From contig JBHLKK010000002.1 in NCBI GenBank assembly GCA_048886745.1, forward strand, positions 9,378-73,377: a stretch of 64,000 nt of DNA, read 5' to 3'. How positions within the stretch are numbered: position 1 is the first letter of the stretch; every line of letters starts with the position of its first letter. A program made the position numbers and the translations under genes. The notes below the pieces were generated by a model. The model saw nothing but the letters and a program-made list of their open reading frames with translations, was not told the DNA's origin and did no database searches. This document shows, piece by piece, positions 1,707-63,135 of the stretch. This stretch comes from Candidatus Hodarchaeota archaeon (GTDB lineage: Archaea; Asgardarchaeota; Odinarchaeia; Odinarchaeales; JBHLKK01).

Positions 1707-1723
1707 GGCGGGAAATAACCAAA

Positions 1724-2014: not shown

Positions 2015-2028
2015 GAGTGATCTCATTA

Positions 2029-4669: not shown

Positions 4670-4677
4670 GGTGAATA

Positions 4678-7532: not shown

Positions 7533-7544
7533 GAGAAATGAAAG

Positions 7545-11972: not shown

Positions 11973-11975
11973 GAT

Positions 11976-13022
11976 ATGGTGTTGGAAGCAATTCTCGATA
12001 TACTTCAAATCATACTTTTCCCAGGAATATTCTTCTGTCTGACTTTAGCACTTTTCTATTCATGGATAGACAGAAAATACCATGCCGATCTTCAGAACAG
12101 AATGGGACCGACTTATACAGGGTGGCGAGGGATCCTTCAGCCTTTTGCAGATTTCATAAAACTCTTAGCCAAAGAAGATATCACCCCGGCAGCAGCCGAT
12201 AGGAGGAGTTTCGCCGCTGTACCAATCATAATGCTGGCAGTTCCTCTGACTGCTCTTCTGCTTATACCGATCAGCAGCGTGTCTGGAATAATCACTTTTC
12301 CTGGTGATATCGTGTTTCTGATGTTCTTATCCACAATAATTGCGATTCTTATCTTTCTTGCTGGATGGTTTTCAACAAATGTATTCAGCGACATTGGAGC
12401 CACAAGAGCTGTCCTGCAACTCATTGGATATGAGATACCTTTTATGATTGCAGTGTTCTCTCCGGCTATTCTGGCCGGTTCACTTACGCTTGCACAGGTT
12501 GTTCAGTATCAAGCCGCCAACGGTATGATGCTTTTCCAATTCCCAGCCTTATTTCGAAGCATTCCGATGTGGATTGCCTTTGGCATTTACATGATAGCTT
12601 TGATGGCTGAACTTGAAAAGATCCCGTTAGACATTCCGGAAGCTGAAACTGAAATCGTTGCTGGATGGCAAACTGAATACTCAGGTAAGAAGTTTGCATT
12701 TCTGGTTCTATCAAATGATCTTCACATGCTTTTCGGTGCAGGCTTAGCTGTAACGCTATTCCTGGGTGGACCCTTTGGAATCGAGAAGTTGCCAGGACTA
12801 GCCTGGCTGGATGCCTTTATTTCGACAACACCGGTGGTTAGAGAAATCTGGTATACAACTTGGTTTATATTAAAGACTGCAATAATTGTGCTGATAATTT
12901 CAAACATCAGAACTCTGTTTGCACGATATAGAGTTGATCAGATGGTTCGTGGCTCGTGGAAATATCTGGCACCGATTGCCTTGGTTCAAGTGATGTTAAT
13001 TCAACTAGTAAGTCTGATCTAA
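11976..13022 (+). CDS. NuoH-like membrane subunit, second paralog
   Basis: RMGPTYTGWRGILQPFADFIKLLAKED is the NuoH motif. Polytopic. Confidence 0.8.
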   Translation: MVLEAILDILQIILFPGIFFCLTLALFYSWIDRKYHADLQNRMGPTYTGWRGILQPFADFIKLLAKEDITPAAADRRSFAAVPIIMLAVPLTALLLIPISSVSGIITFPGDIVFLMFLSTIIAILIFLAGWFSTNVFSDIGATRAVLQLIGYEIPFMIAVFSPAILAGSLTLAQVVQYQAANGMMLFQFPALFRSIPMWIAFGIYMIALMAELEKIPLDIPEAETEIVAGWQTEYSGKKFAFLVLSNDLHMLFGAGLAVTLFLGGPFGIEKLPGLAWLDAFISTTPVVREIWYTTWFILKTAIIVLIISNIRTLFARYRVDQMVRGSWKYLAPIALVQVMLIQLVSLI

Positions 13023-14073: not shown

Positions 14074-14634
14074 ATGCTACTGAACAATGCGTTGTTTAAG
14101 GTAATAGTCACTGGAGAGGGTGGTGTTGGAAAGACCTGCCTTGTTCAACGCTATACTAGGGGCACTTTTTATCACACAAGAACAACCATTGGAGTAGGAT
14201 TTGCCACAGCTGACGTTCATCTCAATGGAAGGGATATAAAACTCCAGATTTGGGACTTTGGTGGCGAAGAACGTTTTAGAAGACTTCTTCCCTCTTTCTG
14301 CAAAGGAGCAAGCGGCGCATTAGTCCTATTTGACTTGACTAGATTTCCCACTTTTCTTCATCTCAACGAATGGTTGGATCTCATAAGAGATAACACCAGC
14401 AATATCCCGCTGGTTCTGGCGGGATCAAAGGCCGATCTTGCCAATATGAGAGTTGTTGACAGGGAACAGATCGCAGAACTAACGAGGAAATACAATATCG
14501 AGCACTATTACGAAGTCTCCGCGAAAGATGGAATGAACATAGAGGTGGTTTTTACTCAAATTGCTGAACTAATAGTTAACTCAATTGAAACTACCAGCAT
14601 GAATGATGAACACGGCATAATGAGAATACAATAG
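14074..14634 (+). CDS. Rab/Ras-like small GTPase (divergent)
   Basis: G1 GEGGVGKT, switch-II WDFGGEERF, G4 AGSKAD, G5 EVSAKDG. Size and motif spacing are Rab-like. Confidence 0.8.
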   Translation: MLLNNALFKVIVTGEGGVGKTCLVQRYTRGTFYHTRTTIGVGFATADVHLNGRDIKLQIWDFGGEERFRRLLPSFCKGASGALVLFDLTRFPTFLHLNEWLDLIRDNTSNIPLVLAGSKADLANMRVVDREQIAELTRKYNIEHYYEVSAKDGMNIEVVFTQIAELIVNSIETTSMNDEHGIMRIQ

Positions 14635-22353: not shown

Positions 22354-23199
22354 TTATTCTAGAATTATCCTCTCCAAGAGTTCCAGAAGATTGTTTCGTT
22401 GCGATTTCTCTATCGCCACCAGTCCATAGGTCTTAATACCAAGTATCTTTTCAATTTCTTCGGGAGGAAGCGCATTTCCACGATCCTGTTTGTTCGCAAC
22501 TCCTATGATTTTTGCATATGGGGCTTTGCTCTTGACCAGTGGAAGGATTTTCTCTCTTGTCAGCTTTATATTATCCAGTGTAGAGTCACAGATTATGGCA
22601 ATGACTTCTGTTCCCTTAACAAGTATGTCCCACGCAGACATGAATTGCTCCTGACCTGCGAAGTCGAATATCATGACATAATATACTCCTACTGTAACTG
22701 TAAGTGGTTCTCTATCAGCGAAGATCGTAGGGACATATTTCATTGGAATTTCTTCTTTTCTCAAGAGACGAAGTATAGTTGTCTTCCCAACACCTCCAAA
22801 TCCGACCAAAGACAATTTTACAGGAAGCTTGCTTATAATATCTATCACAACGCTGTCAAATCCATCCCCTAGCTTGGAGCTATTCTCAGTCTGATTCTCC
22901 GGACCAAACTTCTTAATGAATGAGGTCGTTATTTCCAACAGAATATCCTGAACTTCTCGTTCTGAATTTGTTCTATCGCTTAATATAGCGAATATATTCC
23001 CGTTTGACTTGAGATAGGAGAACCTGAAACGGACAATGTTCGTGTGCTCAATATTACCCATCTCCATCCTTTCGGAGGCACCCAAAATTGTAGGCAGTAT
23101 TGCATCCACTGAAATCTCCTTCGATTTCGTGTATGCTTTGTGGAAAACCTTACCTCCTGTTTTGTTGAGTATTAGTACCTCTCGTATCAACTGCGCCAC
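22354..23199 (-). CDS. Fusion protein: N-terminal longin/roadblock-like domain plus C-terminal Arf-family small GTPase
   Basis: The first 110 aa or so are a small alpha/beta regulatory-type domain (IREVLILNKTGGKVFHKAY...NGNIFAILSDRT...ILLEITTSFIKKF). Then G1 GFGGVGKTTI, G3 FDFAGQEQF and G4 VANKQD (the NKQD variant typical of Arf/Sar/SRbeta). Confidence 0.7.
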   Translation of the reverse strand: MAQLIREVLILNKTGGKVFHKAYTKSKEISVDAILPTILGASERMEMGNIEHTNIVRFRFSYLKSNGNIFAILSDRTNSEREVQDILLEITTSFIKKFGPENQTENSSKLGDGFDSVVIDIISKLPVKLSLVGFGGVGKTTILRLLRKEEIPMKYVPTIFADREPLTVTVGVYYVMIFDFAGQEQFMSAWDILVKGTEVIAIICDSTLDNIKLTREKILPLVKSKAPYAKIIGVANKQDRGNALPPEEIEKILGIKTYGLVAIEKSQRNNLLELLERIILE

Positions 23200-23476: not shown

Positions 23477-25315
23477 TTGCCCAAGACCGCGAAATATATG
23501 TTTAAGATAATTACTGTCGGGGATGGGATGGTTGGCAAAACCAGTCTTATTCTACGATTCACTGAAAATACCTTCAAGGAAACCTATAAGAAAACAATCG
23601 GGGCCGATTTCGCCATCAAGAATGTTGATATTGACGGGACCATAGCCAAGCTCCAAATCTGGGATTTAGGCGGTCAGGATACTTTTAAGGATCTTCGCAA
23701 GATATTCTATCCTGGAGCCCGTGGAGCTATATATGTTTTCGATGTCTCTAACAGACCATCCTTCGAGAACATCAGACACTGGTTTAAAGATATAGATGCA
23801 GTAGTTGGGGATGTTCCCAGACTATTGGTTGGTAATAAGATAGATCTAGAGAGAGAAATAAGCTATAAAGAAGGGAAACAACTGGCCGATGAGTTAGGTA
23901 TGGATTATCTTGAGACCAGCGCTAAAACTGGAGAAAAGGTAGTGGATATATTTAAGATCATGGCAAGAGTGACAGTTGGCGAGAAAGCTGAAGGAATTCC
24001 TTCTGAGGTTCCCGCTCAAATACCTGCAAAAGTCCCTGGAATCTCTGTAGATACTTCATTTGCTATAGGTCCAGAAGCTGAACTGGAATCTGATATTCCC
24101 GCAACACCTGCTGATCTGCTACCCGCTGAACCAGCAATACTCCCTGAGGTTGTTATGGATGTCTATGAATGGATTGAATCACACAGAAACGATTTCATAG
24201 ATTTACTAAAACGGCTCGTAAGCGCTGATACAACCAATCCTCCTGGACATGAATTCAGAGCAGCTAGAATAATACTGGAAGAATTACTGAAAGACAATAT
24301 CAGATTCAGGGTTTATGAAAGCGAGAAGGATAGAACGAATGTTGTTAGTTGGTCTGGTAAAGCTGAGAACCCCTCTGTTATGCTGGTTTGTCATCATGAT
24401 GTCGCACCGCAAGTTGAGGGATGGAAACATCCGCCACTTGATGCTCTTGAAAAAGAAAATAGGATATACGGGTTAGGAGCCTGTTGTAGTAAAGGTCCCC
24501 TAGTTTCTGCCATAATGGCTCTTAGAGCGATCCACGTTCTTAATGTAGAACTAAACGGACAAGCAATGGTTGTCGCAGCATCCGATGGACTTGGAGATGG
24601 GACAATTGGATTAAGGCATCTGATAGAGGAGGTAGGACTCGCTCCAAATCATGCAATTGTAGCTAGTCCTACAAACTGTACAACAATAAAGACCGTAGAA
24701 CTGGAGACACTGGCCTTCAGACTTACGAGCAGAGGACGAGTGTTTGAACCTTCATTTAAGGACATCAATGCTGCCGAAAAACTCGTTAAGGTGCTAGCGG
24801 GATTCAATGATTCAGACCAAAGCGAATATCCAATGCTAGCCAAATGTTCAATTAACATAAGGGAGATCAGAGGAATGCCTGGTGTTGGTGGAATTCCTGA
24901 ATGGGCAGAGGCAACTATAGATATTCGTCATCTATTCAAAGAGAACAATGAAAAGATACTCGATGAGGTTCGGAAACTCATTGATAATGTCAGGATATTG
25001 GATTCCGATGTTGATGTGACCATCGAGGAATTGCCCGAACCTCTAAAGATTGCTTCTTCAGTCGATGCTCCTGTGGTCATGGCGGTTCGAGACGGCCTAT
25101 ACAATACTATCAACAAAGAACCCTCTTTTACTGAAACCAAAGAGAATATCTTGGCGAAGATACTGGTTCAGAGCAAAATACCCGTGTGCATATTTGGTCC
25201 TGGGAATGAAGAGAAATGCAACAGTCCAAACGAGTATATTGAGATTGATGATATGATTGAGGGTGCTAAGGTTTTTGCTGCGTCCCTAATTACTTTGCTA
25301 GGTATTAAAGACTGA
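23477..25315 (+). CDS. Fusion protein: Rab-like small GTPase, Pro-rich linker, then a divergent M20 (ArgE/DapE-like) peptidase domain
   Basis: N-terminal 170 aa: GDGMVGKTS (G1), WDLGGQDTF (G3), GNKIDL (G4), ETSAKTG (G5). Linker PSEVPAQIPAKVPG...PATPADLLPAEPAILPEV. C-terminal domain with M20 landmarks (VCHHDVAPQVEGWKHPP, IYGLGACCSKG, GPGNEEKCNSPNEYIEIDD). TTG start at 23477 preceded by AAGGGGG; an alternative ATG lies at 23498. Confidence 0.75.
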   Translation: MPKTAKYMFKIITVGDGMVGKTSLILRFTENTFKETYKKTIGADFAIKNVDIDGTIAKLQIWDLGGQDTFKDLRKIFYPGARGAIYVFDVSNRPSFENIRHWFKDIDAVVGDVPRLLVGNKIDLEREISYKEGKQLADELGMDYLETSAKTGEKVVDIFKIMARVTVGEKAEGIPSEVPAQIPAKVPGISVDTSFAIGPEAELESDIPATPADLLPAEPAILPEVVMDVYEWIESHRNDFIDLLKRLVSADTTNPPGHEFRAARIILEELLKDNIRFRVYESEKDRTNVVSWSGKAENPSVMLVCHHDVAPQVEGWKHPPLDALEKENRIYGLGACCSKGPLVSAIMALRAIHVLNVELNGQAMVVAASDGLGDGTIGLRHLIEEVGLAPNHAIVASPTNCTTIKTVELETLAFRLTSRGRVFEPSFKDINAAEKLVKVLAGFNDSDQSEYPMLAKCSINIREIRGMPGVGGIPEWAEATIDIRHLFKENNEKILDEVRKLIDNVRILDSDVDVTIEELPEPLKIASSVDAPVVMAVRDGLYNTINKEPSFTETKENILAKILVQSKIPVCIFGPGNEEKCNSPNEYIEIDDMIEGAKVFAASLITLLGIKD

Positions 25316-42506: not shown

Positions 42507-43703
42507 CTATTCTACATGAACTCTGAATAAGTCGATATCGCTCCAGTATTTCATTTCTTCAAAGGTCTTCAAGAACTCTCTAACCGCTCTCTCAACATCC
42601 AGAGATTGTGTAATATATCTTCCTACTATCAGGATGTCCGCACCACTCTTCAAAGCCAAGCTTGCTGTTTCAGGAACCACGCCGCCAGCAACAGCTACCA
42701 ATACTTTCTTCTTCTTGTAGAGCCCCCTAATCTCTTTGATGAAATCCCACCGGGGTTTTTCAGAAGCTTCTACATCTATGGCACGATGCAGAATTACGAC
42801 GTCTGGTTTCTCCTTAAGACCCGTAAGCTTCTCAACAGGATCTTCAACGTTCATCATGTCTACTACTGCATAAATGCCGAGTCTTTGTGCCTCATAGATG
42901 AATTTGTCAAGTGTTTCCTTTGCTGCTAGACCTGAAGCTACTACTGCATCTGAGGTTGCCTCGTAAGCCATATCAACTTCAACTTTTCCTACGTCAAGAG
43001 TCTTAAGGTCACAAGTTATGAATACGTCTTTCGCGACCTCTCTCATTTTTCTAACAACATCAACTCCATATCTTTTAACCAAAGGCGTACCTGCCTCAAG
43101 CAGGATCCTATCACTATGAGGAACCTGTTTCATAATTTCCAATGTCTTCGTGAATGAGGGAATATCTAACGCTATTTGCAGGTAAGGAGGTCTCCACAGC
43201 CTTGGAACTCTGAATCCCATAATGGGATGTGTGGCTCTATCCTTATCATATAATATCTTGTCTATGGACGGATAGCCTATCATTGCACGCTTCAAGGCAA
43301 GCTTTGTTGCACCGTAATTATAATGATATATCTTGCGGAAATCTTGAGCATTTGGATGGATAAATACGCTACATATTACTACCCACTCGTCAATCTTGTC
43401 TTTCGGTATGATCTCCTCCTCGACAGCATCTGCTATCGCCTTTGCAACTGCTGATTGTGCTGGTCCAAATATCTTTGATGCTTGTTCCAGATTTTTCACA
43501 GTAACCTTTGGTATTACTAAAGTCATGGGTTTTGAGGGAAGATTCGGTCTGATTACTGCCAGTAGAGGAGTGTGTCCCACTGAAAGCTGAGCTAAGCTGT
43601 TAGCAAAAGCTTGCCCAACAGGGCCTTCCTTATCTCCAATTATCAAATCTACATGAGCAACTTCGTCTCCCTTACCAATCAATGCTTCACCAATCAAATA
43701 CAT
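42507..43703 (-). CDS. fae-hps: Bifunctional formaldehyde-activating enzyme / 3-hexulose-6-phosphate synthase (Fae-Hps)
   Basis: N-terminal Fae domain ([33 protein letters not shown]). C-terminal OMPDC-family HPS domain (LQIALDIP...ILLEAGTPL...ADILIVGR). Confidence 0.85.
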
Positions 43704-43929: not shown

Positions 43930-44889
43930 ATGTTAAGCGTTAATAGCGAGGCCTTAAAGATTGCAAAGAACATGATCAAGAATGCAGAGCAACTCAATAT
44001 TGATGTTCAAGAATTGGACAACGGTGCAAAGGTGATAGATGCAGGAGTCCAAGCCTCAGGTGGACTCGAGGCAGGTGTTTTGACTGGAAAAATCTGTCTG
44101 GGAGGTCTAGGAGAAATTTCTCTATTCTCTTATTGGCTCGATGATATTTTGCTTCCTGCTGTAAATGTGTACAGCGACCAACCCATTGTTGCTTGCTTGG
44201 GTTCCCAATTTGCTGGCTGGAGAATCAAAGTCGGAGATTATTTTGTGATGGGTTCTGGTCCTGCTAGAGCTTTAGCTCAGGTTGAGGAAAAACTGTTCAA
44301 AGAGATCGGTTATTCAGATGAAGCAGATTCAGCAGTAATAGTTCTAGAAACTAGAAAACTTCCTGAAGAAGAGGTTATGCAGTTCATAGCTGATAAATGT
44401 GGTGTTGACGTCTCCAAAACTTATGCTATCGTGACTCCAACGGCAAGCATTTCTGGCTCAGTTCAGATCGCTGCGAGAGTAGTTGAAACAGGCATACACA
44501 AGATCACGAAGGTAGGATTGGACCCCGATCGTATTTTGCACGGATTTGGAAGCTGTCCAATAGTGCCTGTTGAGAAAAAAGACTCAAAAGCTATGGGGAC
44601 AACTAATGATGCAATACTTCTCGCCGGTTCAGTGATTCTTGGTGTCCGAAGCAAAGAAGAAGATGAACTGAAGAATATAGTAGATCAAACTCCTTCATCT
44701 GCATCAAAAGACTATGGCAGACCATTCTCTGAAATCTTTAAATCAGTAGGTGGAGACTTTTATAAGATAGATCCTGGAATCTTTGCTCCGGCTTTGATTG
44801 TAGTCAATGATGTGCGAACGGGGATAACCTACAAGGCCGGACGTATCAACAGCGAAATGTTGAAGAAAAGCCTGGGTTTTAAAGAATAA
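43930..44889 (+). CDS. mch: Methenyltetrahydromethanopterin cyclohydrolase
   Basis: MLSVNSEALKIAKNMIKNAEQLNIDVQELDNGAKVIDAGVQASGGLEAGVL... matches the Mch N-terminus (VN..A...V..MI..AE.LN..V.EL.NG..VID.GV.A.GG.EAG). About 320 aa, typical Mch length. Confidence 0.85.
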   Translation: MLSVNSEALKIAKNMIKNAEQLNIDVQELDNGAKVIDAGVQASGGLEAGVLTGKICLGGLGEISLFSYWLDDILLPAVNVYSDQPIVACLGSQFAGWRIKVGDYFVMGSGPARALAQVEEKLFKEIGYSDEADSAVIVLETRKLPEEEVMQFIADKCGVDVSKTYAIVTPTASISGSVQIAARVVETGIHKITKVGLDPDRILHGFGSCPIVPVEKKDSKAMGTTNDAILLAGSVILGVRSKEEDELKNIVDQTPSSASKDYGRPFSEIFKSVGGDFYKIDPGIFAPALIVVNDVRTGITYKAGRINSEMLKKSLGFKE

Positions 44890-51227: not shown

Positions 51228-51461
51228 ATGAGTTCTGAAGTTGTTGCATGTCTTCTATTGGTTGTGAAAATGGGAAAGGAACACGAGGTAGCCGAAAAAA
51301 TAAAGCGAATTGAGGACGTAGTAGAAGTGCTGATTGTATACGGACAGTGGGACGTTCTCATAAGAATTGAAACAGAAGCTCTCGGAAAGCTTGACTACAT
51401 AGTTACTGAGATTCGAAGAATAGATGGTGTAGAGCAAACAACAACATTGATTGCTTCCTAG
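51228..51461 (+). CDS. Stand-alone RAM (Lrp/AsnC C-terminal ligand-binding) domain protein
   Basis: 77-aa beta-alpha-beta-beta-alpha-beta pattern (VVACLLLVVKMGKEHEVAEKIKRIEDVVEVLIVYGQWDVLIRIE) typical of the AsnC_trans_reg domain. Confidence 0.55.
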   Translation: MSSEVVACLLLVVKMGKEHEVAEKIKRIEDVVEVLIVYGQWDVLIRIETEALGKLDYIVTEIRRIDGVEQTTTLIAS

Positions 51462-52779: not shown

Positions 52780-52818
52780 TATTTTCACATTTCAATAGTA
52801 TATTTTCACATTTCAATA
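52780..52818. repeat. Perfect 18-bp tandem direct repeat TATTTTCACATTTCAATA x2 with a 3-bp spacer (21-bp period), 50 bp upstream of hutU
   Basis: Seen directly in ...ggTATTTTCACATTTCAATAgtaTATTTTCACATTTCAATAatatttt. The 21-bp periodicity equals two helical turns. Confidence 0.8.
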
Positions 52819-52868
52819 ATATTTTATAGGGCTGAGTCTAGTAAAATGAATAGAACAGCATTTTTGAA

Positions 52869-54581
52869 ATGACTGTTTGGGGGAGACATTATTTGGGTAA
52901 CGAATCTAAACAGATCCTAGGAATACGTGGTCCCCGAGTTGTTAGGGCAAATACGGGCAACAAACTGATATGTAAAGGGTGGCAACAGGAGGCGGTTTTA
53001 AGACTTCTGAAAAATAACCTCGACCCCGAAGTGGCAAAGGATCCAGATAATCTGATCGTTTATGGCGGAGCAGGAAAAGCAGCAAGGAATTGGGAATGTT
53101 TTGATAAGATTATCGCATCGCTCAAAGAATTGGAACATGATGAAACCTTGCTAATTCAGTCTGGAAAACCTGTTGGTATAATAAGAACTCACCGAGCTGC
53201 TCCTCGTGTTTTGATCTCAAATGCTATGGTAGTGCCCAAGTGGGCAACACTGGACGAGTTCAGAAGACTTGAAAATCTGGATCTGACAATGTATGGGCAA
53301 ATGACTGCAGGAAGCTGGATATATATCGGAACCCAAGGGATATTACAAGGAACCTACGAAACTTTTGCTGCAGTAGCCAAAAAGCACTTTGGCGGGAGTC
53401 TAAGAGGTAGATTGGTGCTCACAGCCGGCACAGGTGAGATGGGAGGAGCCCAACCACTTGCGATAACGATGAATGAAGGAGTAGCGCTAGTCGTCGAAGT
53501 CGACAAAGACCAAATTGAAAAAACGATAAGAAAAGAGTGCTGCGACATGATTGTTGAAAACCTCGATGAAGCTATCTCTATAGCGAATGAAGCTATTGAC
53601 AAAAAAGAGGCAAAATCAATAGCTCTCCTCGGCAATGCTGCAGAGACTCATCCAAAACTGCTTGATATGGGAGTAAAGCCCGATATAGTAACCGACCAAA
53701 CTGCAGCTCACGATCCGCTTAATGGGTATATTCCAATGGGGATCAATCTAAAAGAAGCAGCAGAATTCAGAGAAGAAGATCCTGAAAAATACATCAAGAA
53801 GGCCAAGAAATCTATGGCAATTCAGGTAAAAGCCATGCTAGGATTTCAACGTAGAGGAGCAATAGCGTTCGACTATGGTAACAACATCCGTCAACAAGCT
53901 TTTGATGAAGGAATAAAGAACGCGTTCAATATACCAGGATTTGTCCAGGAATATATCCGTCCGCTGTTCTGCGAAGGGAGAGGTCCATTTAGATGGGTGG
54001 CGTTATCAGGGGATCCTGAAGACATCTATAAGCTTGACCATGTTGTCAAAAGGGAATTTGCCTACAATGACCAACTGGTTAGATGGATAAGACTTGCAGG
54101 AGAAAGGGTGAAGTTTCAGGGTTTGCCAGCAAGAGTTTGCTGGTTGGGCCTAGGTGAAAGAGCGAAATTTGGAAAGATAATCAATGATATGGTCCGAAAA
54201 AAAGAACTCAAAGCCCCGATTGCTATCGGCAGGGATCACCTTGATTCAGGTTCTGTTGCTTCGCCAAATCGTGAAACCGAGGGAATGATTGACGGTAGCG
54301 ATGCCATAGCGGACTGGCCAATCTTAAATGCGTTACTTAATGCCGTTTCCGGTGCAACATGGGTATCGGTTCATCATGGTGGCGGTGTTGGGATTGGCTA
54401 TTCAATACATGCTGGAATGGTTATTGTGGCAGACGGAACAGCTGAAGCGGAAGAGAAGCTTGAAAGGGTATTGACGGCGGACCCGTGGAGCGGAGTCATA
54501 AGACATGCAGATGCCGGATACAAGGAGGCCATAAAAACGGCGAAAGAATTCGAACTGAGAATACCAATGGAAAAAGAATAA
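52869..54581 (+). CDS. hutU: Urocanate hydratase
   Basis: 570 aa. N-terminal [48 protein letters not shown] matches the urocanase N-terminus. Internal [13 protein letters not shown]. Confidence 0.9.
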
Positions 54582-54649
54582 GACCAGCAGGAATCAGTTT
54601 TCCCTCCTAATCTGCCCAAATAAACCCTCAGAGTCTTCACTAGGGAGGA

Positions 54650-56197
54650 ATGGGCCGAATGAATGAAGTGATTATCTCTCTTCAAGGTTTAAGCTTGAAT
54701 GATGTCATAGACGTCGCTCGTAATCTAGCCAAGGTAGATTTGTCAGACAAAGTTTTGGAAAGAGTAGAAAGATCTCGAAAAACAATCGAGAGAGCGATTT
54801 CTGAGGAAAAGATCATCTATGGAGTCAATACAGGTTTTGGTGCATTAAGTGATAGAATCATTCCAAGAAAAGACGTGGAAAGATTGCAGATAAACCTCAT
54901 TAGAAGCCATTCTGCTGGGGTGGGAAAACCACTTGCTAATGAAATTGTGCGAGCAACAATGCTTCTCAGGATTAATGCATTGACAAGAGGGTATTCTGGC
55001 GTTTCACTTGATGTTGTTCAGATACTTGTTGAGATGCTAAACAAGCAGATTCATCCTTTAGTCCCCGAGAAAGGCTCTGTGGGGGCTAGTGGTGATCTCG
55101 CCCCCCTAGCTCATATCGCGCTTACCATGATTGGTGAAGGACAGGTCGAGGTCGGGGACAAGATCCTACCCTCTGGAGAGGCCTTGAAATCTGCTAATCT
55201 GAATCCCGTTAGATTAGGTCCAAAGGAAGGATTAGCACTTATTAATGGATCGCAATTGATTACCGCCATTGGGGCATTGACTGTTTTCGATGCTGAGAAC
55301 ATACTGAAGGCCTCTCAGATATCGACTGCCTTGTCATTGGAGGCACTCAATGGGCGGATAGATCCCTTTGATAAAAGAATTCACAGTGCAAGACCTTTCA
55401 AAGGACAGATTGCAGTAGCAGAGAATATTTCGAGACTTGTCGAAAACAGTCGAATTATCTCAGATGCAACCAGCAAAAGAATTCAAGATGCCTATTCCCT
55501 AAGGTGCTCTCCTCAAATCATCGGAACTTCAAAGGATACCATCGACTACGTTAGAAGGACAATCGAAGTTGAAATCAATTCTGCAACAGATAACCCGTTG
55601 GTCTTTCCTGAGAATGGAGATATAGTATCTGGTGGTAATTTCCATGGTCAACCAATAGCAATGGCTTTGGATTTTCTATCGATTGCAATGTGTAATATTG
55701 GTAATATTTGTGAACGTAGGGTCGCCAGGTTAATTGATGACAAATTGAGCGGAGGATTGCCTCCGTTTCTGGTGAAACAAATGGGCGAAGAAGGGCTAAG
55801 TAGTGGGTTTATGACAGCCCAATCCACAGCTGCATCCTTGGCTGCTGAAAACAGATGCCTATCCAACCCCTCAAGTGTAAACTCTATTTCAACAAACGCC
55901 AATCAAGAGGATCTTGTAAGTATGGGTATGACGGCGGCTGGAAAAGCCAAAGACATCCTGAGAAATACTGAGTACATAATCGCAATTGAGCTTCTGTGTG
56001 CAGCACAGGGACTCGAGTTCAGAGGTGTAGATAAAGCTGGTGTAGGCACATTAGCAGCATATAATTTAATTAGAAAAGTAGCACAAAGCTTAGAAGAAGA
56101 TGCTGAACTATCTCCCCTTATTGAAAACGTAGCGAGACTTGTTCAAGGGGGTGAACTGGTAGCTTCTGTTGAGAAAAGAATTGGCCGACTAGTTTAA
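54650..56197 (+). CDS. hutH: Histidine ammonia-lyase
   Basis: GSVGASGDLAPLAHIA contains the ASG triad that forms the MIO cofactor. 515 aa. Confidence 0.9.
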   Translation: MGRMNEVIISLQGLSLNDVIDVARNLAKVDLSDKVLERVERSRKTIERAISEEKIIYGVNTGFGALSDRIIPRKDVERLQINLIRSHSAGVGKPLANEIVRATMLLRINALTRGYSGVSLDVVQILVEMLNKQIHPLVPEKGSVGASGDLAPLAHIALTMIGEGQVEVGDKILPSGEALKSANLNPVRLGPKEGLALINGSQLITAIGALTVFDAENILKASQISTALSLEALNGRIDPFDKRIHSARPFKGQIAVAENISRLVENSRIISDATSKRIQDAYSLRCSPQIIGTSKDTIDYVRRTIEVEINSATDNPLVFPENGDIVSGGNFHGQPIAMALDFLSIAMCNIGNICERRVARLIDDKLSGGLPPFLVKQMGEEGLSSGFMTAQSTAASLAAENRCLSNPSSVNSISTNANQEDLVSMGMTAAGKAKDILRNTEYIIAIELLCAAQGLEFRGVDKAGVGTLAAYNLIRKVAQSLEEDAELSPLIENVARLVQGGELVASVEKRIGRLV

Positions 56198-56389
56198 CCA
56201 TCTTCATCCCAAACTATGATTCTATTTCTCTCGACCGCAACATCAATCAAATTTGCTTAAGAATAATATGTAGGTACCAATGATCTGATATGCTGTAATA
56301 AGCTAGAGCTTCAGGAAATCCTTACATTTGCTTATCCAGATAAAGAAGAGCAAGACCAAGTTTGAAACAAGGAATAGCGTGATAAGAGT

Positions 56390-57301
56390 TCACTTAGTCT
56401 TTGATCTGAATAAATCGTGAAGAAAAATCTTTCCTTTCCCCAGGGTCCCCCCATAGTTTGTTGCAGTTATCATTAATACACCGGGGATCTCTGTGGCATT
56501 TTCTATTCCAATCCTTAATGCATTATGTAAATCTTCTTGCCTTAATCCACTTACTATTACTTCATAAATGCATTTTACATTCTCAGAGATTCTACTCCCT
56601 TTCTGATGTCTTAGAACTGGACAGTATGCATCGTTGGTTGTGGCTATTGCCTCTTTATATCTTTTCCCTCCGACTTTGCTCCCGGAGGCCGCGAATTTTC
56701 CCACAACGTAAGGGATAGTTGCTATGCCTTCAAGTGCCCTTTCCGCGGATTCTAATGCAGCTTTGTCTGAATTCGCCAAGATTAAAAACATTCCACCAGT
56801 TATACCTTTAATAATTCCAAATCTTTTTTCCACGTAAAACCAACCATCCATCTTGGGTATTTTGAAGACTTCTCTTCCAAATGCTTCAGTCTCCTGTTCA
56901 AATCCATCTCCAAACTTTTGCACCATGGTACCCTTGATATCTATGAATTCCTCGGCCAGTTCCCTGGGTAAGGCATCGAAAACACTGGTCTTGGGATATG
57001 GTACAACACCTTTCCTAATTCTAACTATGAGCCAGTGTTTTAGTTGCTTGTATCTTCTGTCGATCACTTGGATTATAAAACCTGGTCTTCCGTCGGGAGC
57101 TTTATTGGGTTTCACTTCTGATTCCATTGAAGCTTCTGAAGGGGGGATAGTAGCTGACCTACCCAATCCTTTGGCTTCCAGAGCAGCTTCAAGGGCCCAT
57201 TTTCTATTTATAGAAGTTATGAGTATCCTTGCAATGTATGCATCAAAGGTTTCACAAAACGTATCCTCGATAATGACTTCATTAATCCTGAATTCTACCA
57301 T
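56390..57301 (-). CDS. ftr: Formylmethanofuran:tetrahydromethanopterin N-formyltransferase family protein (Ftr/FhcD-like)
   Basis: VIIEDTFCETFDAYIARILITSINRKWALEAALEAKGLGRS...APDGRPG...FGDGFEQETEAFGREVFKIP...AASGSKVGG...YCPVL...IYEVIVSGL...TNYGGTLGKGKIFLHDLF. These match Ftr landmarks (EIEDTFAE.FD...AR.LITA...KWA..AA.EA.G...PDGRPG..FGDGY...FGR...ASGSKVG..YCPTL..YEIVING..NYGGKLG..KI.LHDLF). Confidence 0.8.
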   Translation of the reverse strand: MVEFRINEVIIEDTFCETFDAYIARILITSINRKWALEAALEAKGLGRSATIPPSEASMESEVKPNKAPDGRPGFIIQVIDRRYKQLKHWLIVRIRKGVVPYPKTSVFDALPRELAEEFIDIKGTMVQKFGDGFEQETEAFGREVFKIPKMDGWFYVEKRFGIIKGITGGMFLILANSDKAALESAERALEGIATIPYVVGKFAASGSKVGGKRYKEAIATTNDAYCPVLRHQKGSRISENVKCIYEVIVSGLRQEDLHNALRIGIENATEIPGVLMITATNYGGTLGKGKIFLHDLFRSKTK

Positions 57302-57531
57302 TGAATATCTCCAATCCTTTAAAATTCTATGAATTCTTATTCTGGTAATTTATCAGAATAATTATGCCTGAACAATTCGAGCTAAAAAGCTTTCACATAT
57401 TTGAAGAATGAGATGAAATATCGGATTTTCGAACACAAGACCGTTAACTATATAGGAATGAAAATAGGTTCTCGTACATGAAGCAGAAAAGAATTGACAA
57501 GAAGAGGATTCTGATAAGGGGAGAGATAATT

Positions 57532-58857
57532 ATGCCGGAAGTTGCCGAGCTTATTCAAAAGGAAAACGTAAAAGAAGTACTGCTACAGTTTACAGATATA
57601 TTTGGTACATTGCGATCTCTTTGGGTCTCTTCCAAACTCTTCCCAAAGATAGCAGATGATGGCATACATGTAGATGGATCATCGTTGGGGGGCGTGGTAG
57701 ATGTTGGCAAAAGCGATTTGAAGTTGTTGCCAGCTTTAGATACATTTCTAGTTTTACCTTCAAATCTTTTTCCCCAGAAAGTTGCAAGGGTTGTATGTGA
57801 TATTTACGAGCCAGAATCAAGCAAACCTTTTGAATTCGATACACGATTCATCCTCAGAAAAACATTAGATGTTGCTAAGGAGGACTTGGGTCCATCTGTT
57901 GGATTTTACACTGCGAGTGAAGTAGAATTCTTCCTGTTTGAAAGGGAGGAAGATGGAACGATCAGACTAATTGATGAGGGGAGATATTTAGATACTCCCC
58001 CTGCAGATCGAGCCGCCAATTTACGACTTGAGATTGCTGAAACTCTTAGAAATATGGATATCTCTATTGAGAAACATCATCATGAAGTTCCTCACGGAAA
58101 GAGTGAGTTCAATCTAGCTTACTCAGAAGCATTAAGGATGGCTGATACTGTCTACCTAGTTAAGTTTCTCGTGAAACTTATGGCAGCCAGAAGAGGACTA
58201 GTTGCCTCTTTTATGCCAAAACCATTTCATCACGAATATGGCGCTGGTCTGCACACTCATCTCAGCCTTATCGATGATGAAAGGAATCAAAACATTTTCT
58301 CTGATCCAGATGGACGTTATGGGCTGAGTGAAATTGCCTTGAACTTCGTGGCCGGTATCTTAACTCATGCAAAGGCGCTGGCAGGAATAACCAACCCCTC
58401 AGTTAATTCTTATAAGAGGCTCGTACCTGGCTGGGAAGCTCCAGTCTATATTTCCTGGGCTCGATATAACCGATCGGTCCTCGTAAGGATTCCTCCAGGA
58501 AAGGGGAAAGAAACCCGGCTGGAGTATAGACCTACGGATGGGTCCTGCAATTTCTATATTGCGTATGCTGCTCTTCTTTCCGCCGGATTAGATGGTATTC
58601 GAAAGAAAATCAGACCTGTGGCACCGGTGGAAGAGAACATCTACAAGATGAGTGAGTCAGAACGACTCAAAAGAGGCATTGGGGTGCTCCCAGCGAATCT
58701 AGGAGAAGGCCTAAGAGAACTCTCTAAAGACTCATATCTTCAGGGGAGCTTGGGAAATGCATTTCACAAGAAGTTTTTGGAGCTCAAAATGAAAGAATGG
58801 AGAGATTATAGCGTTACGGTCCACGAATGGGAGAGGAAAAAGTATCTGGATGTCTAG
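57532..58857 (+). CDS. Glutamine synthetase-family protein (GlnA-like, divergent ATP/ammonium-site motif)
   Basis: N-terminal beta-grasp (VKEVLLQFTDIFGTLRS). Catalytic domain with NPSVNSYKRLVPGWEAPVYISWARYNRSVLVRIPP (classic GS motif). FMPKPFHHEYGAGLHTHLSL sits where GS-I has FMPKP.FGDNGSGMHCH.SL. GGGGAG RBS before the ATG at 57532. Confidence 0.75.
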   Translation: MPEVAELIQKENVKEVLLQFTDIFGTLRSLWVSSKLFPKIADDGIHVDGSSLGGVVDVGKSDLKLLPALDTFLVLPSNLFPQKVARVVCDIYEPESSKPFEFDTRFILRKTLDVAKEDLGPSVGFYTASEVEFFLFEREEDGTIRLIDEGRYLDTPPADRAANLRLEIAETLRNMDISIEKHHHEVPHGKSEFNLAYSEALRMADTVYLVKFLVKLMAARRGLVASFMPKPFHHEYGAGLHTHLSLIDDERNQNIFSDPDGRYGLSEIALNFVAGILTHAKALAGITNPSVNSYKRLVPGWEAPVYISWARYNRSVLVRIPPGKGKETRLEYRPTDGSCNFYIAYAALLSAGLDGIRKKIRPVAPVEENIYKMSESERLKRGIGVLPANLGEGLRELSKDSYLQGSLGNAFHKKFLELKMKEWRDYSVTVHEWERKKYLDV

Positions 58858-58918
58858 TTTTGGGCTAGTTAATAGATCATATTCTCTCAAGGATGTTACC
58901 CAAATCGGAGGAAAAATC

Positions 58919-60211
58919 ATGGGAATGAAAGCCGATTTCACGATAGTTAACGCCAATGAGCTTGTAACTCTGAAAGGCTCAAGTGACAGACCCAAAGTCA
59001 AAGATGCTATGAATGACCTAGGTATTGTTCAAGGGGGGGCTATTGCGGTAAAGGAAGGACGCATAGTGGCTGTCGGATCTACAAACAAAGTACTAGGAGA
59101 TCTTGAAAAAGGCTTTGAAATCGTAGATGCCTCAGGCAAACTTGTTACACCAGGGCTTGTTGACCCACATGTCCACTTGGTATTCGCCGGTACTAGAGAG
59201 CAAGAACTCGAAGCTATGGCTGTGAAAGGTGTACCCTATTTGGAAATTAAGGCTCAGGGAGGAGGAATGCCAACATCACTTAAAAAAACTGCAGAGACAA
59301 GCTTTCAGGATCAACTCAAGATAACTACCAGAATACTCGATAAGATGCTCATTCATGGTACAACAACAATCGAGGCGAAAAGCGGCTATGAGATGACTTT
59401 TCAGGGTGAGATAAGGCAGTTAGAGGTCATTCATACCCTCAATAAAGCTCATCCAATCGATCTTATTCCAACCTTCTGTGCCCAAGGCATTCCTCCTGAA
59501 TACGAGAACAGAGTAGATGAACTTACGGATGAGATCGTGGAAAAATGGATTCCAGAAATAGCCAAAAGAAACCTTGCAGAATACGCGGATGTATTTTGTG
59601 AAAAAGGTTATTTTAACCTTGAACAAACAAAAAGAATCTTAGAAGCAGGAAGAAAACATGGCATGAAACTGAGAAATCACTGTGATTGGCTTGTTCACAG
59701 CGGTGGTGCCAGACTGGCTGCAGAGATAGGAGGAGTGGTTTCGGCAGACCATCTCATCTATACTCCGATGGAAGATGTCGATGCATTAAGAGAACAAGGC
59801 ACAATAATAGTATTTTTACCAACTTCTCCATTCTGCTATGTAGGAACATATGCCAAAGCTCGGGACATCATTGATAGGGGAGCAGCAGTTGCTTTAGCAA
59901 CCGATGTGAGTGCAGCAAACCTCTGTGAATCTATGCAGATGATGATGACGCTCGCGGTTCTTCGGATGAAGATGACGACTGCTGAAGCTCTCACCGCTGC
60001 TACCATTAACGCGGCGCACTCAATAGATCGGGGACACGATATTGGGTCACTAGAGGTAGGGAAGAGAGCGGATATTGTGATTTTTGACGCTCCAAATCAC
60101 ATGTTCTTCGCATACAATTATGGAATCAATCTCGCAGAAAAGGTGTTCAAGAATGGAAAGCTGGTCGCAGAAAGAGGAAGACGGATTAACGCTCTTCCTG
60201 GCCAAAGTTGA
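58919..60211 (+). CDS. hutI: Imidazolonepropionase
   Basis: GLVDPHVHLVFAGTRE and LIHGTTTIEAKSGYEM match the HutI signature (HGTTT.E.KSGYGL). GGAGG RBS before the ATG at 58919; the tracked ORF start at 58850 is upstream read-through. Confidence 0.85.
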   Translation: MGMKADFTIVNANELVTLKGSSDRPKVKDAMNDLGIVQGGAIAVKEGRIVAVGSTNKVLGDLEKGFEIVDASGKLVTPGLVDPHVHLVFAGTREQELEAMAVKGVPYLEIKAQGGGMPTSLKKTAETSFQDQLKITTRILDKMLIHGTTTIEAKSGYEMTFQGEIRQLEVIHTLNKAHPIDLIPTFCAQGIPPEYENRVDELTDEIVEKWIPEIAKRNLAEYADVFCEKGYFNLEQTKRILEAGRKHGMKLRNHCDWLVHSGGARLAAEIGGVVSADHLIYTPMEDVDALREQGTIIVFLPTSPFCYVGTYAKARDIIDRGAAVALATDVSAANLCESMQMMMTLAVLRMKMTTAEALTAATINAAHSIDRGHDIGSLEVGKRADIVIFDAPNHMFFAYNYGINLAEKVFKNGKLVAERGRRINALPGQS

Positions 60212-60345: not shown

Positions 60346-61057
60346 CTACAAAGGAGTCAATACTAATCGATAGCCAGCAAAGTATTCCATTCTAATCTGT
60401 TCCTTGGATATGCCAATCTCTTCAAACAACCTCTCCATTGCCTTAATCATTGCGGGCGGACCTTCGGTGTAAAAAAATCTTTCCAAATAGTCTGGAATCT
60501 CTTTCTTTACCATTTCAGATGTAATATACCCAGTTAGGCCACCCCAGTCCTTGCCAGGTTTGCTGAGAGCAAATACCACCCTAAGGTTCTTATTCTGTTT
60601 CTGCATTTCGATGAGTTCTCCTCTGAAAGTGGTGTCTTTTTCAGTCACATTACCATAAAGAATCGTGATCTTCGTATCTAGCTTCATATCGGTAGCGTAT
60701 TTACACATGCTCATGAAGGGTGTTATTCCGATACCGCCTGAAAGCATTGTTATCTTATCAAATTCACCCTCGAAAGTAAAACTGCCGTAAGGCGCATCGA
60801 TTTTGCTCCAGTCTCCAATTTCCAAGAGATCCAATGCGTTGGAGAATTCGCTTCCTGTGAGTTTCTTAGTAAATTCTATGAAGTCACTTTCGGTCGGACT
60901 GCTTGAAATACTGAAATGCTTCCTCATTTCCTCATTTAATGGTGACAAACATGAATTGCCCAGCTTTGTAGCCGAAGATTTCAGGTCTAGCAAACCTGAA
61001 GCTTTTGACATTATGTGTTCGGGATATGATATCTATTACTTCTGTTTCAAACTTCAT
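60346..61057 (-). pseudogene. FNR-like FAD/NAD(P)-binding oxidoreductase interrupted by a +1 frameshift (pseudogene or sequencing error)
   Basis: Frame A from the ATG at 61057 (GGAGG RBS) reads MKFETEVIDIISRTHNVKSFRFARPEIFGYKAGQFMFVTIK*, a typical FAD-binding N-terminus ending in TGA at about 60932. The tracked ORF 60346-61011 is in the next frame and continues ...EEMRKHFSISSSPTE...MLSGGIGITPF (RxYS and GGxGxxP motifs). Deleting one A from the AAA run (plus-strand TTT at 60935-60937) joins the frames as GQFMFVTINEEMRKHFSISSSP. Confidence 0.55.
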
Positions 61058-61121: not shown

Positions 61122-62330
61122 TCAAATCTCCAGTTCTTTATGGAATGTTGACATATTCGTTATCCTATTCTTTCTGACAATCACAACATCTTCTATTCTT
61201 ACTCCAAATTCGTCGGGGAAGTATAGTCCAGGTTCAACCGTTGTAATGGCTCCCTCCGCTAAGATGTCTCTTGAAGTCAGACCCAGATAAGGCGGTTCGC
61301 CTATCGTTAACCCAACTCCATGACCCAATCCGTGAATGAACCCTTCGGTCATTGGAATCTTTTTCTCGGTATAATAGACGGGCGTCTTATATCCCTTTGC
61401 TTCAAAGAATTCACAAACCTTTAACATTGCCTCATTTGAAGGAATTCCCGATTTTATGATGTCTAAAGCCAGTTGCTGAGACTCGAGAACATCCATATGA
61501 ATTCTCTTCGCCTTTTCTGAGGCTTTTCCGATAACGAAGGTCCTTGTTGTATCGAAGCAATACCCCCCAACTTCCTGAGGGAAAATATCGAACACAATCG
61601 GAGTGTTTGTTTTTAGGACTGTGTCTTCTCCACCAGTATTGTGTGGATCTGCCCCTTCATGTCCCACTGCGAAAATCGTATCCTCCGAAGCTATTAGATT
61701 CTCTTCTGCTAGCTTCACACGTATGAACGCTTTAACATCTCCCACCGTGAGATCGTTTCCTTCTTCAGTCTTCAGTCTATTGTCTTTATCCACTTGGCGT
61801 TCCGAAAGCATACTTAGGGTAGCACCCATAACTTTCTCGGTTCTTCTTCCTACACTTCTTATTTTCTCGATTTCAATATCATCCTTTGTCATTCTTACTC
61901 TATCGATCAGTTCTTCATCGATTGAAATTGAGAATCCGCTTTTTTCCAGCCATTTCGCCCAGCTCAGGGCGACGCCTGCCTCAACTTTGCCGGCGATAGC
62001 AATATTTCCCTTTATATCGAGTTCCTTCAGAGCTCGAACCCCAACCTCCATTCTTGCCTTGCTTCTACCTAATTTTTCTGCAAGTTCTAAATAACCGAAC
62101 TCAGAGTAAGATCTGATATCCTTAACATAGCCCTGTTTTGCGGTTCCAACATCTATATCGGCAACAATGAGGGTCGGCTCTCTTCTAACGTTCTTAATGT
62201 ATATTCCTCCTCTAGCGGCTACTGCTCCAATAACATACGCCAGAGAAGGATTTTCATAAGTTGAATCCCCAATAACAACAATTGCGTCTATTCCTGCCTT
62301 GGATAATTCCCCATCAAAATCTTGAATCAT
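61122..62330 (-). CDS. M24-family Xaa-Pro aminopeptidase / prolidase
   Basis: Pita-bread fold motifs, C-terminal HGLGHGVGLTIGEPPYL and upstream metal ligands. Start at the ATG at 62330 with AGGAGG RBS; the tracked ORF start at 62378 overlaps the upstream gene. Confidence 0.8.
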   Translation of the reverse strand: MIQDFDGELSKAGIDAIVVIGDSTYENPSLAYVIGAVAARGGIYIKNVRREPTLIVADIDVGTAKQGYVKDIRSYSEFGYLELAEKLGRSKARMEVGVRALKELDIKGNIAIAGKVEAGVALSWAKWLEKSGFSISIDEELIDRVRMTKDDIEIEKIRSVGRRTEKVMGATLSMLSERQVDKDNRLKTEEGNDLTVGDVKAFIRVKLAEENLIASEDTIFAVGHEGADPHNTGGEDTVLKTNTPIVFDIFPQEVGGYCFDTTRTFVIGKASEKAKRIHMDVLESQQLALDIIKSGIPSNEAMLKVCEFFEAKGYKTPVYYTEKKIPMTEGFIHGLGHGVGLTIGEPPYLGLTSRDILAEGAITTVEPGLYFPDEFGVRIEDVVIVRKNRITNMSTFHKELEI

Positions 62331-62343
62331 TTTAACCCTCCTC

Positions 62344-63135
62344 CTACTTGCCTTTGAATTTTGGTTGTCTCTTTTCAAGAAAAGCCTTTATTCCCTCAAC
62401 GTGATCTTCCGAGGAAAATGCTGAGGCAAAAATCTCTCTCTCATACGCCAGCCCAGTGTCTAAATCCACCTCGAGGGCCCTATTAACTGCATCTTTCGTT
62501 AGACTTAGTGCGACCGGGCTTTTGCTCATCAACTTTCTACATAGTTCCTCTGCAGCCTCGTCCAGTTTCTCAGACGGGACAACCTTGTATATCAGGCCGA
62601 ACCTTTCTGCCTCCTTAGCATTGACATGATCGCCTAGCAAACACCATTCTTTGGCTTTATTTCTTCCCATCATTCTGGGGAGCCTTTGTGAACCCCCCCA
62701 TCCAGGCACGATAGCCAAATTGATCTCAGGCTGACCAAATCTTGCATTTTCCGAAGCAATAATGAAGTCACACGCCAATGCAATCTCGCATCCTCCACCA
62801 AGAGCAAAACCATTCACCAGTGCTATGACCGGCTTGCCAAGTGATTCAATGAGTTGGGTGATTTTTTGCCCAGATTTCGCGAACTCTCTGGCCATCAAAG
62901 GGCTTAGTCTGGGAAACGTCTTTATATCTGCTCCTGCAATGAAAGCCTTTTCTCCCGAACCTCTAATCATGAGGACCCTTATTTCATCATCCTTGTCAAC
63001 TTCTTCTATTGCATTTATGATTTCTTGCATGGTTTCAGGACTTAGTGCATTGTAAACTTCAGGTCTATTAATGGTTAGTCTGGCAACTCCGTTCTTTTTT
63101 TCAAGGATTATATGGTTGTATGATTTTGATGACAA
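62344..63135 (-). CDS. Enoyl-CoA hydratase/isomerase (crotonase family)
   Basis: [17 protein letters not shown]...[18 protein letters not shown] is the crotonase oxyanion-hole signature. 263 aa. Confidence 0.85.

Follow-up and report, generated by a model that had tools for sequence, protein, structure and literature searches.

A conserved archaeal histidine-utilisation cluster with a formyltransferase paralogue and a glutamine synthetase-like protein: a possible link of histidine catabolism to tetrahydromethanopterin

The 64-kb stretch analysed here (the window; 64,000 nt of contig JBHLKK010000002.1 from a Candidatus Hodarchaeota archaeon) encodes urocanate hydratase (hutU), histidine ammonia-lyase (hutH) and imidazolonepropionase (hutI), and the question raised by this locus is what becomes of the N-formimino-L-glutamate that the three enzymes are predicted to make. 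It has been proposed that histidine catabolism is ancestral in the Asgard archaea (Imachi 2020), and the fate of formiminoglutamate in these organisms is left vague so far. Two further genes lie in the cluster. One encodes a homologue of formylmethanofuran:tetrahydromethanopterin (H4MPT) formyltransferase (Ftr), designated Ftr-II, and the other a paralogue of glutamine synthetase (GS), designated GS-like. Comparative data presented below make it probable that the HutI product passes its one-carbon (C1) unit to H4MPT through Ftr-II; which reaction the GS-like enzyme catalyses is suggested with much less assurance. Full-text literature searches returned nothing that links formimino- or formylglutamate to H4MPT, or hut genes to Ftr or GS in archaea.

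The cluster was first described in an initial annotation made from the sequence, and ORF calling and profile searches agree with the coordinates given there for hutU, hutH, the Ftr homologue, the GS-family gene and hutI (Table 1). HutH, HutU and HutI exceeded all three equivalog cut-offs within this one locus. The same annotation had described the cluster as lacking HutG, the HutF/HutG pair and FtcD, and this was borne out by a Pfam scan of the window. The scan covered 50 open reading frames (ORFs), essentially all non-overlapping ORFs of at least 150 aa in the 64 kb, and no arginase-fold or FGase-fold HutG, no HutF-like deiminase or second amidohydrolase and no FTCD was found among them. FTCD_N and FTCD domains were matched by no cluster protein and by no window ORF of at least 150 aa. 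The Pfam-annotated flanks of related archaeal loci also contained no HutG, HutF or FtcD, and an FGase query gave zero tblastn matches across the archaeal loci examined.

Conservation of the neighbourhood in related genomes, which the initial annotation had suggested as a check, was followed in 42 non-redundant archaeal loci from Hod-, Heimdall-, Hermod- and Atabeyarchaeia and Bathyarchaeia. The loci came from individual gene contexts and from scanning GTDB species genomes and metagenomes, and the genes were mapped by tblastn. The Ftr-II and GS-like proteins of the window are 100% identical to NCBI proteins assigned to Candidatus Hodarchaeota. Homologues of Ftr-II with at least 68% identity were found in metagenome-assembled genomes (MAGs) labelled Hod-, Heimdall- or Promethearchaeota and in Bathyarchaeota, and homologues of the GS-like protein with at least 65% identity in Hod-, Heimdall-, Odin-, Njord-, Hermod- and Atabeyarchaeia and in Bathyarchaeota. 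The GS-like gene was followed by hutI in all 33 evaluable loci, with a gap of 20–65 nt (median 28). Ftr-II adjoined the GS-like gene in 34 of the 42 loci, the two genes being divergent in 32 of these and co-directional in two, with spacers of 37–388 nt. Only two exceptions to this adjacency were evaluable (three loci, as L039 and L067 are one chromosome): a Bathyarchaeota chromosome in which Ftr-II lies 570 kb away from the GS-like/hutI pair, and a contig in which hutU takes the upstream position.

Close relatives of the window locus have an identical gene order. On one Bathyarchaeota contig all five genes are co-directional (Ftr-II>GS-like>hutI>hutU>hutH), and Ftr-II stands beside GS-like>hutI also in other Bathyarchaeia, a Heimdall MAG, Hermod, a 488-kb JGI contig and both complete Atabeyarchaeia genomes. 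A divergent Bathyarchaeia sub-clade (L058 1797–8317; L059 1174–7708; L054; L055), whose Ftr-II proteins are 54–56% identical and hut-linked, has the order hutU<>Ftr-II>enolase-superfamily>GS-like (43% identical)>M24 peptidase. The linkage of Ftr-II, GS-like and hutI was thus found to hold across Asgard lineages and Bathyarchaeota. Since it persists despite rearrangement across two phyla, a shared function is strongly argued. We read hutU, hutH, hutI, Ftr-II and GS-like as one conserved archaeal variant of the Hut pathway.

The Ftr-II protein of the window matched both lobes of Ftr (PF01913, FTR, distal lobe, 128 bits; PF02741, FTR_C, proximal lobe, 144 bits). It aligned to residues 2–296 of 1FTR and was 43% identical to the M. 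kandleri enzyme in the structural alignment. An AlphaFold2 model of moderate confidence (pLDDT 71) gave template modelling (TM) scores of 0.78–0.80 to 1FTR, 1M5S and 1M5H (0.78 to 1FTR). Glu245 of M. kandleri Ftr, reported to be the catalytic residue (2006 Ftr-coenzyme structure), corresponds to E247 in CIYEVIV and is conserved in the Ftr-II and canonical clades. About 50 further core positions are common to Ftr-II and Ftr. Replacements specific to the Ftr-II clade were present in all of its members, and new basic residues were among them (Gln95 to Lys, Gly203 to Lys/Arg and an invariant Arg82). The window protein scored under both NCBIfam cut-offs for Ftr (NF002554, 287.6 versus 297; TIGR03119, 279.4 versus 292.6), and a canonical Asgard Ftr (P0435) scored over both (401.5 and 376.5).

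When representatives at 50% identity were searched exhaustively, the hut-linked family formed one cluster (516 bits). The next representatives were 52% and 44% identical, and Ftr of the characterised type was 36–41% identical. A second, canonical family of Asgard Ftr, 38% identical to the window protein, includes members from Hodarchaeota. A canonical Hodarchaeota ftr gene adjoins that of F420-dependent Mtd in divergent orientation, with Mch 8 kb off, and one sequencing run (SRR30758827) contains both this gene and the 2.7-kb Logan contig with the window's Ftr-II. A neighbour-joining tree placed M. kandleri and M. barkeri Ftr with the canonical Asgard Ftr, outside the Ftr-II branch. Bootstrap support was 93/100 both at the Ftr-II split and at the hut clade, and it reached 100/100 at the canonical Asgard clade. 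Besides the hut-linked clade and the Bathyarchaeia sub-clade, the Ftr-II branch contains P0121/P0122 and a clade of bacterial proteins. The nearest relative without hut linkage, P0121 (L016 10001–10918; 52% identical), has Alba, CCA-adding enzyme and CofC/CofD as neighbours in an archaeal locus that lacks hut genes. One member of its cluster carries an '[Eubacterium]' label in NCBI, probably through mis-binning of a contig; the idea of a Firmicute homologue from an H4MPT-free organism was dropped in view of the archaeal context.

Published KEGG Orthology (KO) tables list three, three and one ftr copies for the complete genomes Atabeya-1, Atabeya-2 and Freyarchaeia, and one, one and zero copies of hutH, hutU and hutI. 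Genes 216–219 of Atabeya-1 are hutH, hutI, GS and ftr, and transcripts of hutI, GS and hutH are on record for Atabeya-2. Ftr-II differs from Ftr sensu stricto by curated cut-off and by phylogeny and agrees with it in fold and in catalytic residue. Judged from these comparisons, the window protein is a distinct paralogue and not the Wood-Ljungdahl Ftr. The initial annotation had reasoned that tight clustering with methanogen-type Ftr, together with a hutG or ftcD elsewhere in the genome, would speak against its hypothesis of C1 transfer to H4MPT; the protein stands apart from methanogen-type Ftr, and on the side of phylogeny the hypothesis is favoured. Ftr-II members are annotated as Ftr by NCBI and JGI, and reconstructions count Ftr-II and the GS-like protein as Wood-Ljungdahl Ftr and GS. 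A third type of Ftr paralogue (K00672) adjoins purD and purF in Atabeyarchaeia-1 (genes 139–141; PMC11291895 supplement), which hints that the Ftr fold has yet another specialised role, possibly in the synthesis of purines.

Ftr-II was also found in bacteria. The GTDB scan returned proteins 51–61% identical from Gammaproteobacteria (Thiothrix, Thiolinea, Ectothiorhodospiraceae, Granulosicoccaceae), a planctomycete and an acidobacterium. All clade-specific residues of the archaeal members are present in them, so bacterial and archaeal Ftr-II are probably of one substrate specificity. The bacterial gene heads a conserved H4MPT cluster, Ftr-II>beta-RFAP-synthase-like>MtdB>Mch>CitG-like>Fae (L042 8969–15337; L043, L044, L046–L053, L056, L057 and L060–L062), and the clade is therefore tied to H4MPT. 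No fhcABC genes lie inside this cluster, and the remaining flanks (up to 10 kb per side) were spot-checked by Pfam. Bacterial Ftr-II has no hut or GS-like neighbours apart from an N-formylglutamate deformylase (TIGR02017, 353 versus cut-off 279), encoded directly upstream of Ftr-II in three Thiothrix/Thiolinea-like (Thiotrichales-like) genomes. These three are the bacterial genomes nearest the archaeal Ftr-II clade, and no other hut gene occurs within 10 kb. In the remaining bacterial loci the upstream genes are unrelated to C1 or hut metabolism. The deformylase suggests, as a hint rather than a rule, that N-formylglutamate may be the substrate or the product of Ftr-II. It further suggests a bacterial route in which formyl-H4MPT and glutamate would give N-formylglutamate and then formate and glutamate, the archaeal hut clusters running the reverse transfer. 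In the Thiothrix/Thiolinea-like genomes, Ftr-II together with a HutG-type enzyme may thus release formate from formyl-H4MPT independently of methanofuran.

The GS-like protein gave Pfam matches to Gln-synt_N (64.7 bits) and Gln-synt_C (365.6 bits) and is of the short GS I-alpha type (377 bits to 7TDP, about 370 to B. subtilis GS and 255 to 9QUR). Aligned with B. subtilis GS, it retained DGSS (Asp50/Ser53), ExE, Tyr179, HHEV, the second n1-metal Glu, His269, NSYKRL, the PGWEAP flap (Glu327), NRS and ExR. The initial annotation had quoted an altered peptide, FMPKPFHHEYGAGLHTHLSL, which is found in the ORF translation, and the motif change that it saw is real and specific to the hut-linked family, as judged from the alignment and 80 metagenomic relatives. 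The family-wide changes are Asn264 (S. typhimurium numbering) to Tyr, Ser266 to Ala/Cys, GQxE to GK(Y/S)E and EAS-HHE to EKH-HHE. The feedback residue Arg62 of I-alpha enzymes is Asp. Both Lys changes (Gln to Lys and Ala to Lys) recur in the GS-like protein (43% identical) of the hutU-linked sub-clade, which has also lost the Asn; a canonical archaeal GS keeps the Asn and the Gln at these positions. A metagenome scan with the GS-like alignment returned mostly relatives at 35–46% identity without hut linkage, and these served as a negative control for the signature. GKxE was carried only by the nine hut-linked sequences among the 80, in which the third motif, where parsed, was YG(A/C)GLH; all parsed non-hut sequences had GQxE and (N/P/A)GSGMH. 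In GS, Asn264 also contacts the glutamate alpha-amino group. Among GS-like enzymes that have been characterised, its loss accompanies the use of an amine other than ammonia (PMC8998196). Because of this contact and this precedent, the change could affect either substrate site.

What Ftr-II and the GS-like enzyme act on, and in which order the steps run, is proposed here from the observed gene identities, linkage, paralogy and active-site differences. HutH, HutU and HutI would convert histidine to N-formimino-L-glutamate, as predicted from equivalog-level homology. Ftr-II would then take the N-formimidoyl or N-formyl group of glutamate, in place of formyl-methanofuran, to N5 of H4MPT. This would yield glutamate and a C1-H4MPT species, the latter joining the H4MPT pool through Mch, Mtd and related enzymes. 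If Ftr-II needs N-formylglutamate, which the bacterial context suggests, the GS-like ligase is by elimination the only conserved candidate for its formation from formiminoglutamate. The most likely guess is that this enzyme, with its remodelled pocket, deals with the amidine nitrogen and functionally replaces HutF. It might place the imino nitrogen of formiminoglutamate, or freed NH3, on the gamma-carboxyl of glutamate to give glutamine and N-formylglutamate; a gamma-glutamyl phosphate could possibly capture the imino nitrogen, which would join the roles of HutF and GS. Transfer of the formiminoglutamate C1 unit to H4MPT through the Ftr homologue had been put forward in the initial annotation, and it gains backing from the linkage, the separate clade, the scores under the cut-offs and the bacterial H4MPT clusters. 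Taken together, Ftr-II transfer to H4MPT and handling of the amidine nitrogen by the GS-like enzyme make a combined proposal that is plausible and still somewhat more likely to need correction than to hold in full. A broader version, to which we give roughly three chances in ten's worth of belief and so regard as unlikely in its entirety, makes Ftr-II a family of N-formyl(formimidoyl)-L-glutamate:H4MPT C1 transferases in which free glutamate stands in for methanofuran. The transfer would run 'inward' in Asgard archaea and Bathyarchaeota, bringing the C1 unit of histidine to the H4MPT/Wood-Ljungdahl pool, and 'outward' in some sulfur-oxidising Gammaproteobacteria, where it would replace the Fhc complex, and the GS-fold partner would capture the amidine nitrogen as glutamine at the expense of ATP, replacing HutF.

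Several points weigh against the combined proposal. The substrate assignments all draw on genomic context, and spending ATP within a fermentative catabolic pathway is odd on energetic grounds. The absence of hutG, hutF and ftcD reaches as far as the window, the flanks of related loci and, weakly, part of a published KO table. The Ftr tree is distance-based, and the evidence for a canonical Ftr besides Ftr-II comes from Asgards. The deformylase neighbour is confined to 3 of about 16 bacterial loci. The GS-like protein may simply be a glutamine synthetase. It passes the GlnA equivalog cut-off (TIGR00653, 454 versus 429.15) and retains Asp50, Ser53, Tyr179 and Glu327, and the published KO table lists no other K01915 gene for the complete genome of Atabeya-2. 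These same data are used by an alternative in which Ftr-II moves the formimino group directly to H4MPT, as an analogue of the FtcD transferase, and the GS-like protein is a true GS that makes glutamine from the released glutamate and ammonia, assimilating nitrogen from histidine. The linkage and paralogy of Ftr-II fit it equally, the metal, ATP, ammonium-site and flap residues are all retained, and GS uses precisely the two products of the pathway, glutamate and NH3. However, the changes of GQxE to GKxE and Asn264 to Tyr and the extra Lys are left unexplained, the 71 non-hut relatives being canonical, and a housekeeping GS is unexpected directly before hutI in 33/33 loci from two phyla. Atabeya-1 has two further GS genes in the published KO table. 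Bacterial Ftr-II, with the same clade residues, sits where formyl and not formimino groups are handled, and no formimino-H4MPT cyclodeaminase, needed if formimino is moved (in the combined proposal as well), was identified. We regard this alternative as unlikely, although it deserves to be taken seriously.

Two other explanations fare worse. That Ftr-II and the GS-like enzyme act on another substrate or carrier is judged improbable. Here the GS-like enzyme might amidate imidazolone propionate or formiminoglutamate, with a route ending in glutamine derivatives, the acceptor might be tetrahydrofolate (THF), or the direction might be biosynthetic. In the GS-like pocket the alpha-end is remodelled and could accommodate an N-substituted glutamate, and the gene is bound more tightly to hutI than to Ftr-II, from which it is separated by the 570 kb noted above in one Bathyarchaeota chromosome. 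Lokiarchaeon MK-D1, in which hutU-hutH-hutI is paired with formate-THF ligase, offers a folate-based solution among Asgards. This is opposed by the bacterial Ftr-II genes, which lie in H4MPT and not folate clusters, by the conserved Ftr core with Glu245, and by the lack in the loci of any conserved gene for further processing of glutamine derivatives. The initial annotation had kept as a fallback that Ftr is a Wood-Ljungdahl gene that happens to sit here, to which a housekeeping GlnA can be added. The full-length fold, the retained catalytic Glu, the Ftr label given to all members by NCBI and JGI and the use of H4MPT by these organisms would agree with an accidental position. Yet the adjacency is kept despite reordered genes in Asgard lineages and Bathyarchaeota, Hodarchaeota have a separate canonical Ftr family adjoining Mtd, and the complete genomes with hut genes have three ftr copies against one in the genome without. 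With the scores under the curated cut-offs and the distinct clade (bootstrap 93/100), synteny and phylogeny already largely refute it, and the fallback, contradicted by these linkage, clade and score data, is very improbable.

Table 1. Coordinates of the hut cluster and of the H4MPT-related genes in the window
Feature	Position	Strand	Evidence
hutU, urocanate hydratase	52869-54581	+	TIGR01228 equivalog 923 bits versus cut-off 375; three urocanase Pfam domains
hutH, histidine ammonia-lyase	54650-56197	+	TIGR01225 654 bits versus cut-off 539; Lyase_aromatic 655 bits
Ftr-II, hut-linked paralogue of formylmethanofuran:H4MPT formyltransferase	56390-57301	-	FTR + FTR_C, full length
Intergenic region, 230 nt, between divergent Ftr-II and GS-like/hutI operon	57302-57531	.	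divergent arrangement in 32 of 34 loci
GS-like ATP-dependent ligase, GS type I-alpha paralogue, predicted to be co-transcribed with hutI	57532-58857	+	Gln-synt_N + Gln-synt_C
hutI, imidazolonepropionase	58919-60211	+	TIGR01224 394 bits versus cut-off 298
Mch, methenyl-H4MPT cyclohydrolase; outside hut cluster	43930-44889	+	PF02289 419 bits
Fae-Hps fusion, H4MPT-dependent formaldehyde enzyme	42507-43703	-	Fae 240 bits + OMPdecase/HUMPS 112 bits

The start of hutI was placed at 58919 rather than 58850, because its homologues are 421–430 aa long. The overlap of the GS-like stop with hutI, reported in the initial annotation, exists for the maximal hutI ORF (start 58850) and not for the preferred start, from which the GS-like stop is separated by 61 nt (20–35 nt in relatives). 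The GS-like start at 57532 is supported by the length of the homologues (440–443 aa) and by the motif AAGGGGAGAG 6 nt before it. Mch and Fae-Hps, also named in the initial annotation, were both verified by Pfam matches, and their presence in the window marks the organism as a user of H4MPT. Mch is a likely downstream user of the hut-derived C1 unit, a functional link that we infer.

Other genes near the cluster were recorded. Just 3' of hutI lie an FNR-like flavin reductase fragment (60346–61011, minus strand) and a prolidase/creatinase-like M24 peptidase (61122–62378, minus strand). An M24 gene is seen again at this place in close relatives (L002) and accompanies the cluster of the Bathyarchaeia sub-clade, but most other loci have none. 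For the enolase-superfamily MR/MLE protein of that sub-clade, the best sub-threshold matches include L-Ala-D/L-Glu epimerase and N-acetyl-D-Glu racemase. Neither the M24 peptidase gene nor the enolase-superfamily gene is kept across the loci, and both were dropped as members of the pathway. Two Bathyarchaeia loci (L040 11035–12279; L064 11033–12277) have a second HutI paralogue, 46% identical, between Ftr-II and hutU, in addition to the GS-linked hutI. A stand-alone 77-aa protein is encoded 1.4 kb upstream of hutU, between the lysyl-tRNA synthetase and macro-domain genes (51228–51461, plus strand). Its positional counterpart in the close relative L002 carries an AsnC-type ligand-binding (RAM) domain, and the window protein is possibly a small-molecule sensor.

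Elsewhere in the window, two tandem Nuo/Mbh-like modules (1119–8611 and 10239–13022, plus strand) each have a fused 30-kDa + 49-kDa (NiFe-hydrogenase-like) subunit and a NuoH-like subunit; the first additionally has Fer4, CCG-domain, antiporter-like and 20-kDa subunits. Eukaryote-like small GTPases, typical of Asgard genomes, are encoded at 14074–14634 (plus strand, Ras family) and 22354–23199 (minus strand, Arf/Roc, with a 125-aa N-terminal extension). A 612-aa fusion of unusual architecture (23477–25315, plus strand) joins an N-terminal Ras/Roc-type small GTPase to Peptidase_M20 and M20_dimer domains.

If the combined proposal is true, an H4MPT-linked ending would tie amino-acid fermentation to the archaeal C1/Wood-Ljungdahl pool in two very abundant groups of sediment archaea, and two new enzyme activities would be found on well-known folds. 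Some genes called Ftr and counted as Wood-Ljungdahl genes would be another enzyme, and pathway-completeness calls for Heimdall-group and Bathyarchaeota genomes would have to be reconsidered. For bacteria, a formyl shuttle independent of methanofuran would also be suggested.

The arrangement was compared with known systems. The FtcD branch (glutamate formimidoyltransferase, EC 2.1.2.5, with formimidoyl-THF cyclodeaminase) is alike in the upstream HutH, HutU and HutI steps and in that the C1 unit is kept on a pterin carrier and not hydrolysed. The FtcD transferase can also move formyl groups between glutamate and folate. With the HutF/HutG branch of bacterial Hut pathways, the proposed intermediate N-formylglutamate is common to both. 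The archaeal clusters differ from that branch in having neither HutF nor HutG; the formyl group would pass to H4MPT and not be freed as formate, and deimination would be linked to ATP through a GS-fold enzyme. The Ftr-II and GS-like proteins belong to neither branch. Given the folate arrangement in MK-D1, Asgards therefore appear to have at least two solutions.

At the level of the enzymes, Ftr-II has the two-lobe fold in common with Ftr (EC 2.3.1.101; 1FTR, 1M5H, 1M5S) and with FhcD of the methylotroph Fhc complex (6S6Y), at 41–43% identity and with H4MPT as the probable co-substrate; its partners are hut genes, and not fwd/mtd/mch or, in bacteria, fhcABC. The GS-like protein resembles GlnA2 and GlnA3 of Streptomyces, PuuA and the glutamate-methylamine ligase 9QUR in its intact ATP/metal site, altered pocket and recruitment to a catabolic operon, and the Asn264 substitution of GlnA2 is a precedent for its own (PMC8998196). 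Compared with these gamma-glutamyl-amine synthetases, it is nearer to GS I-alpha (377 bits to 7TDP versus 255 to 9QUR) and keeps the four residues Asp50, Ser53, Tyr179 and Glu327.

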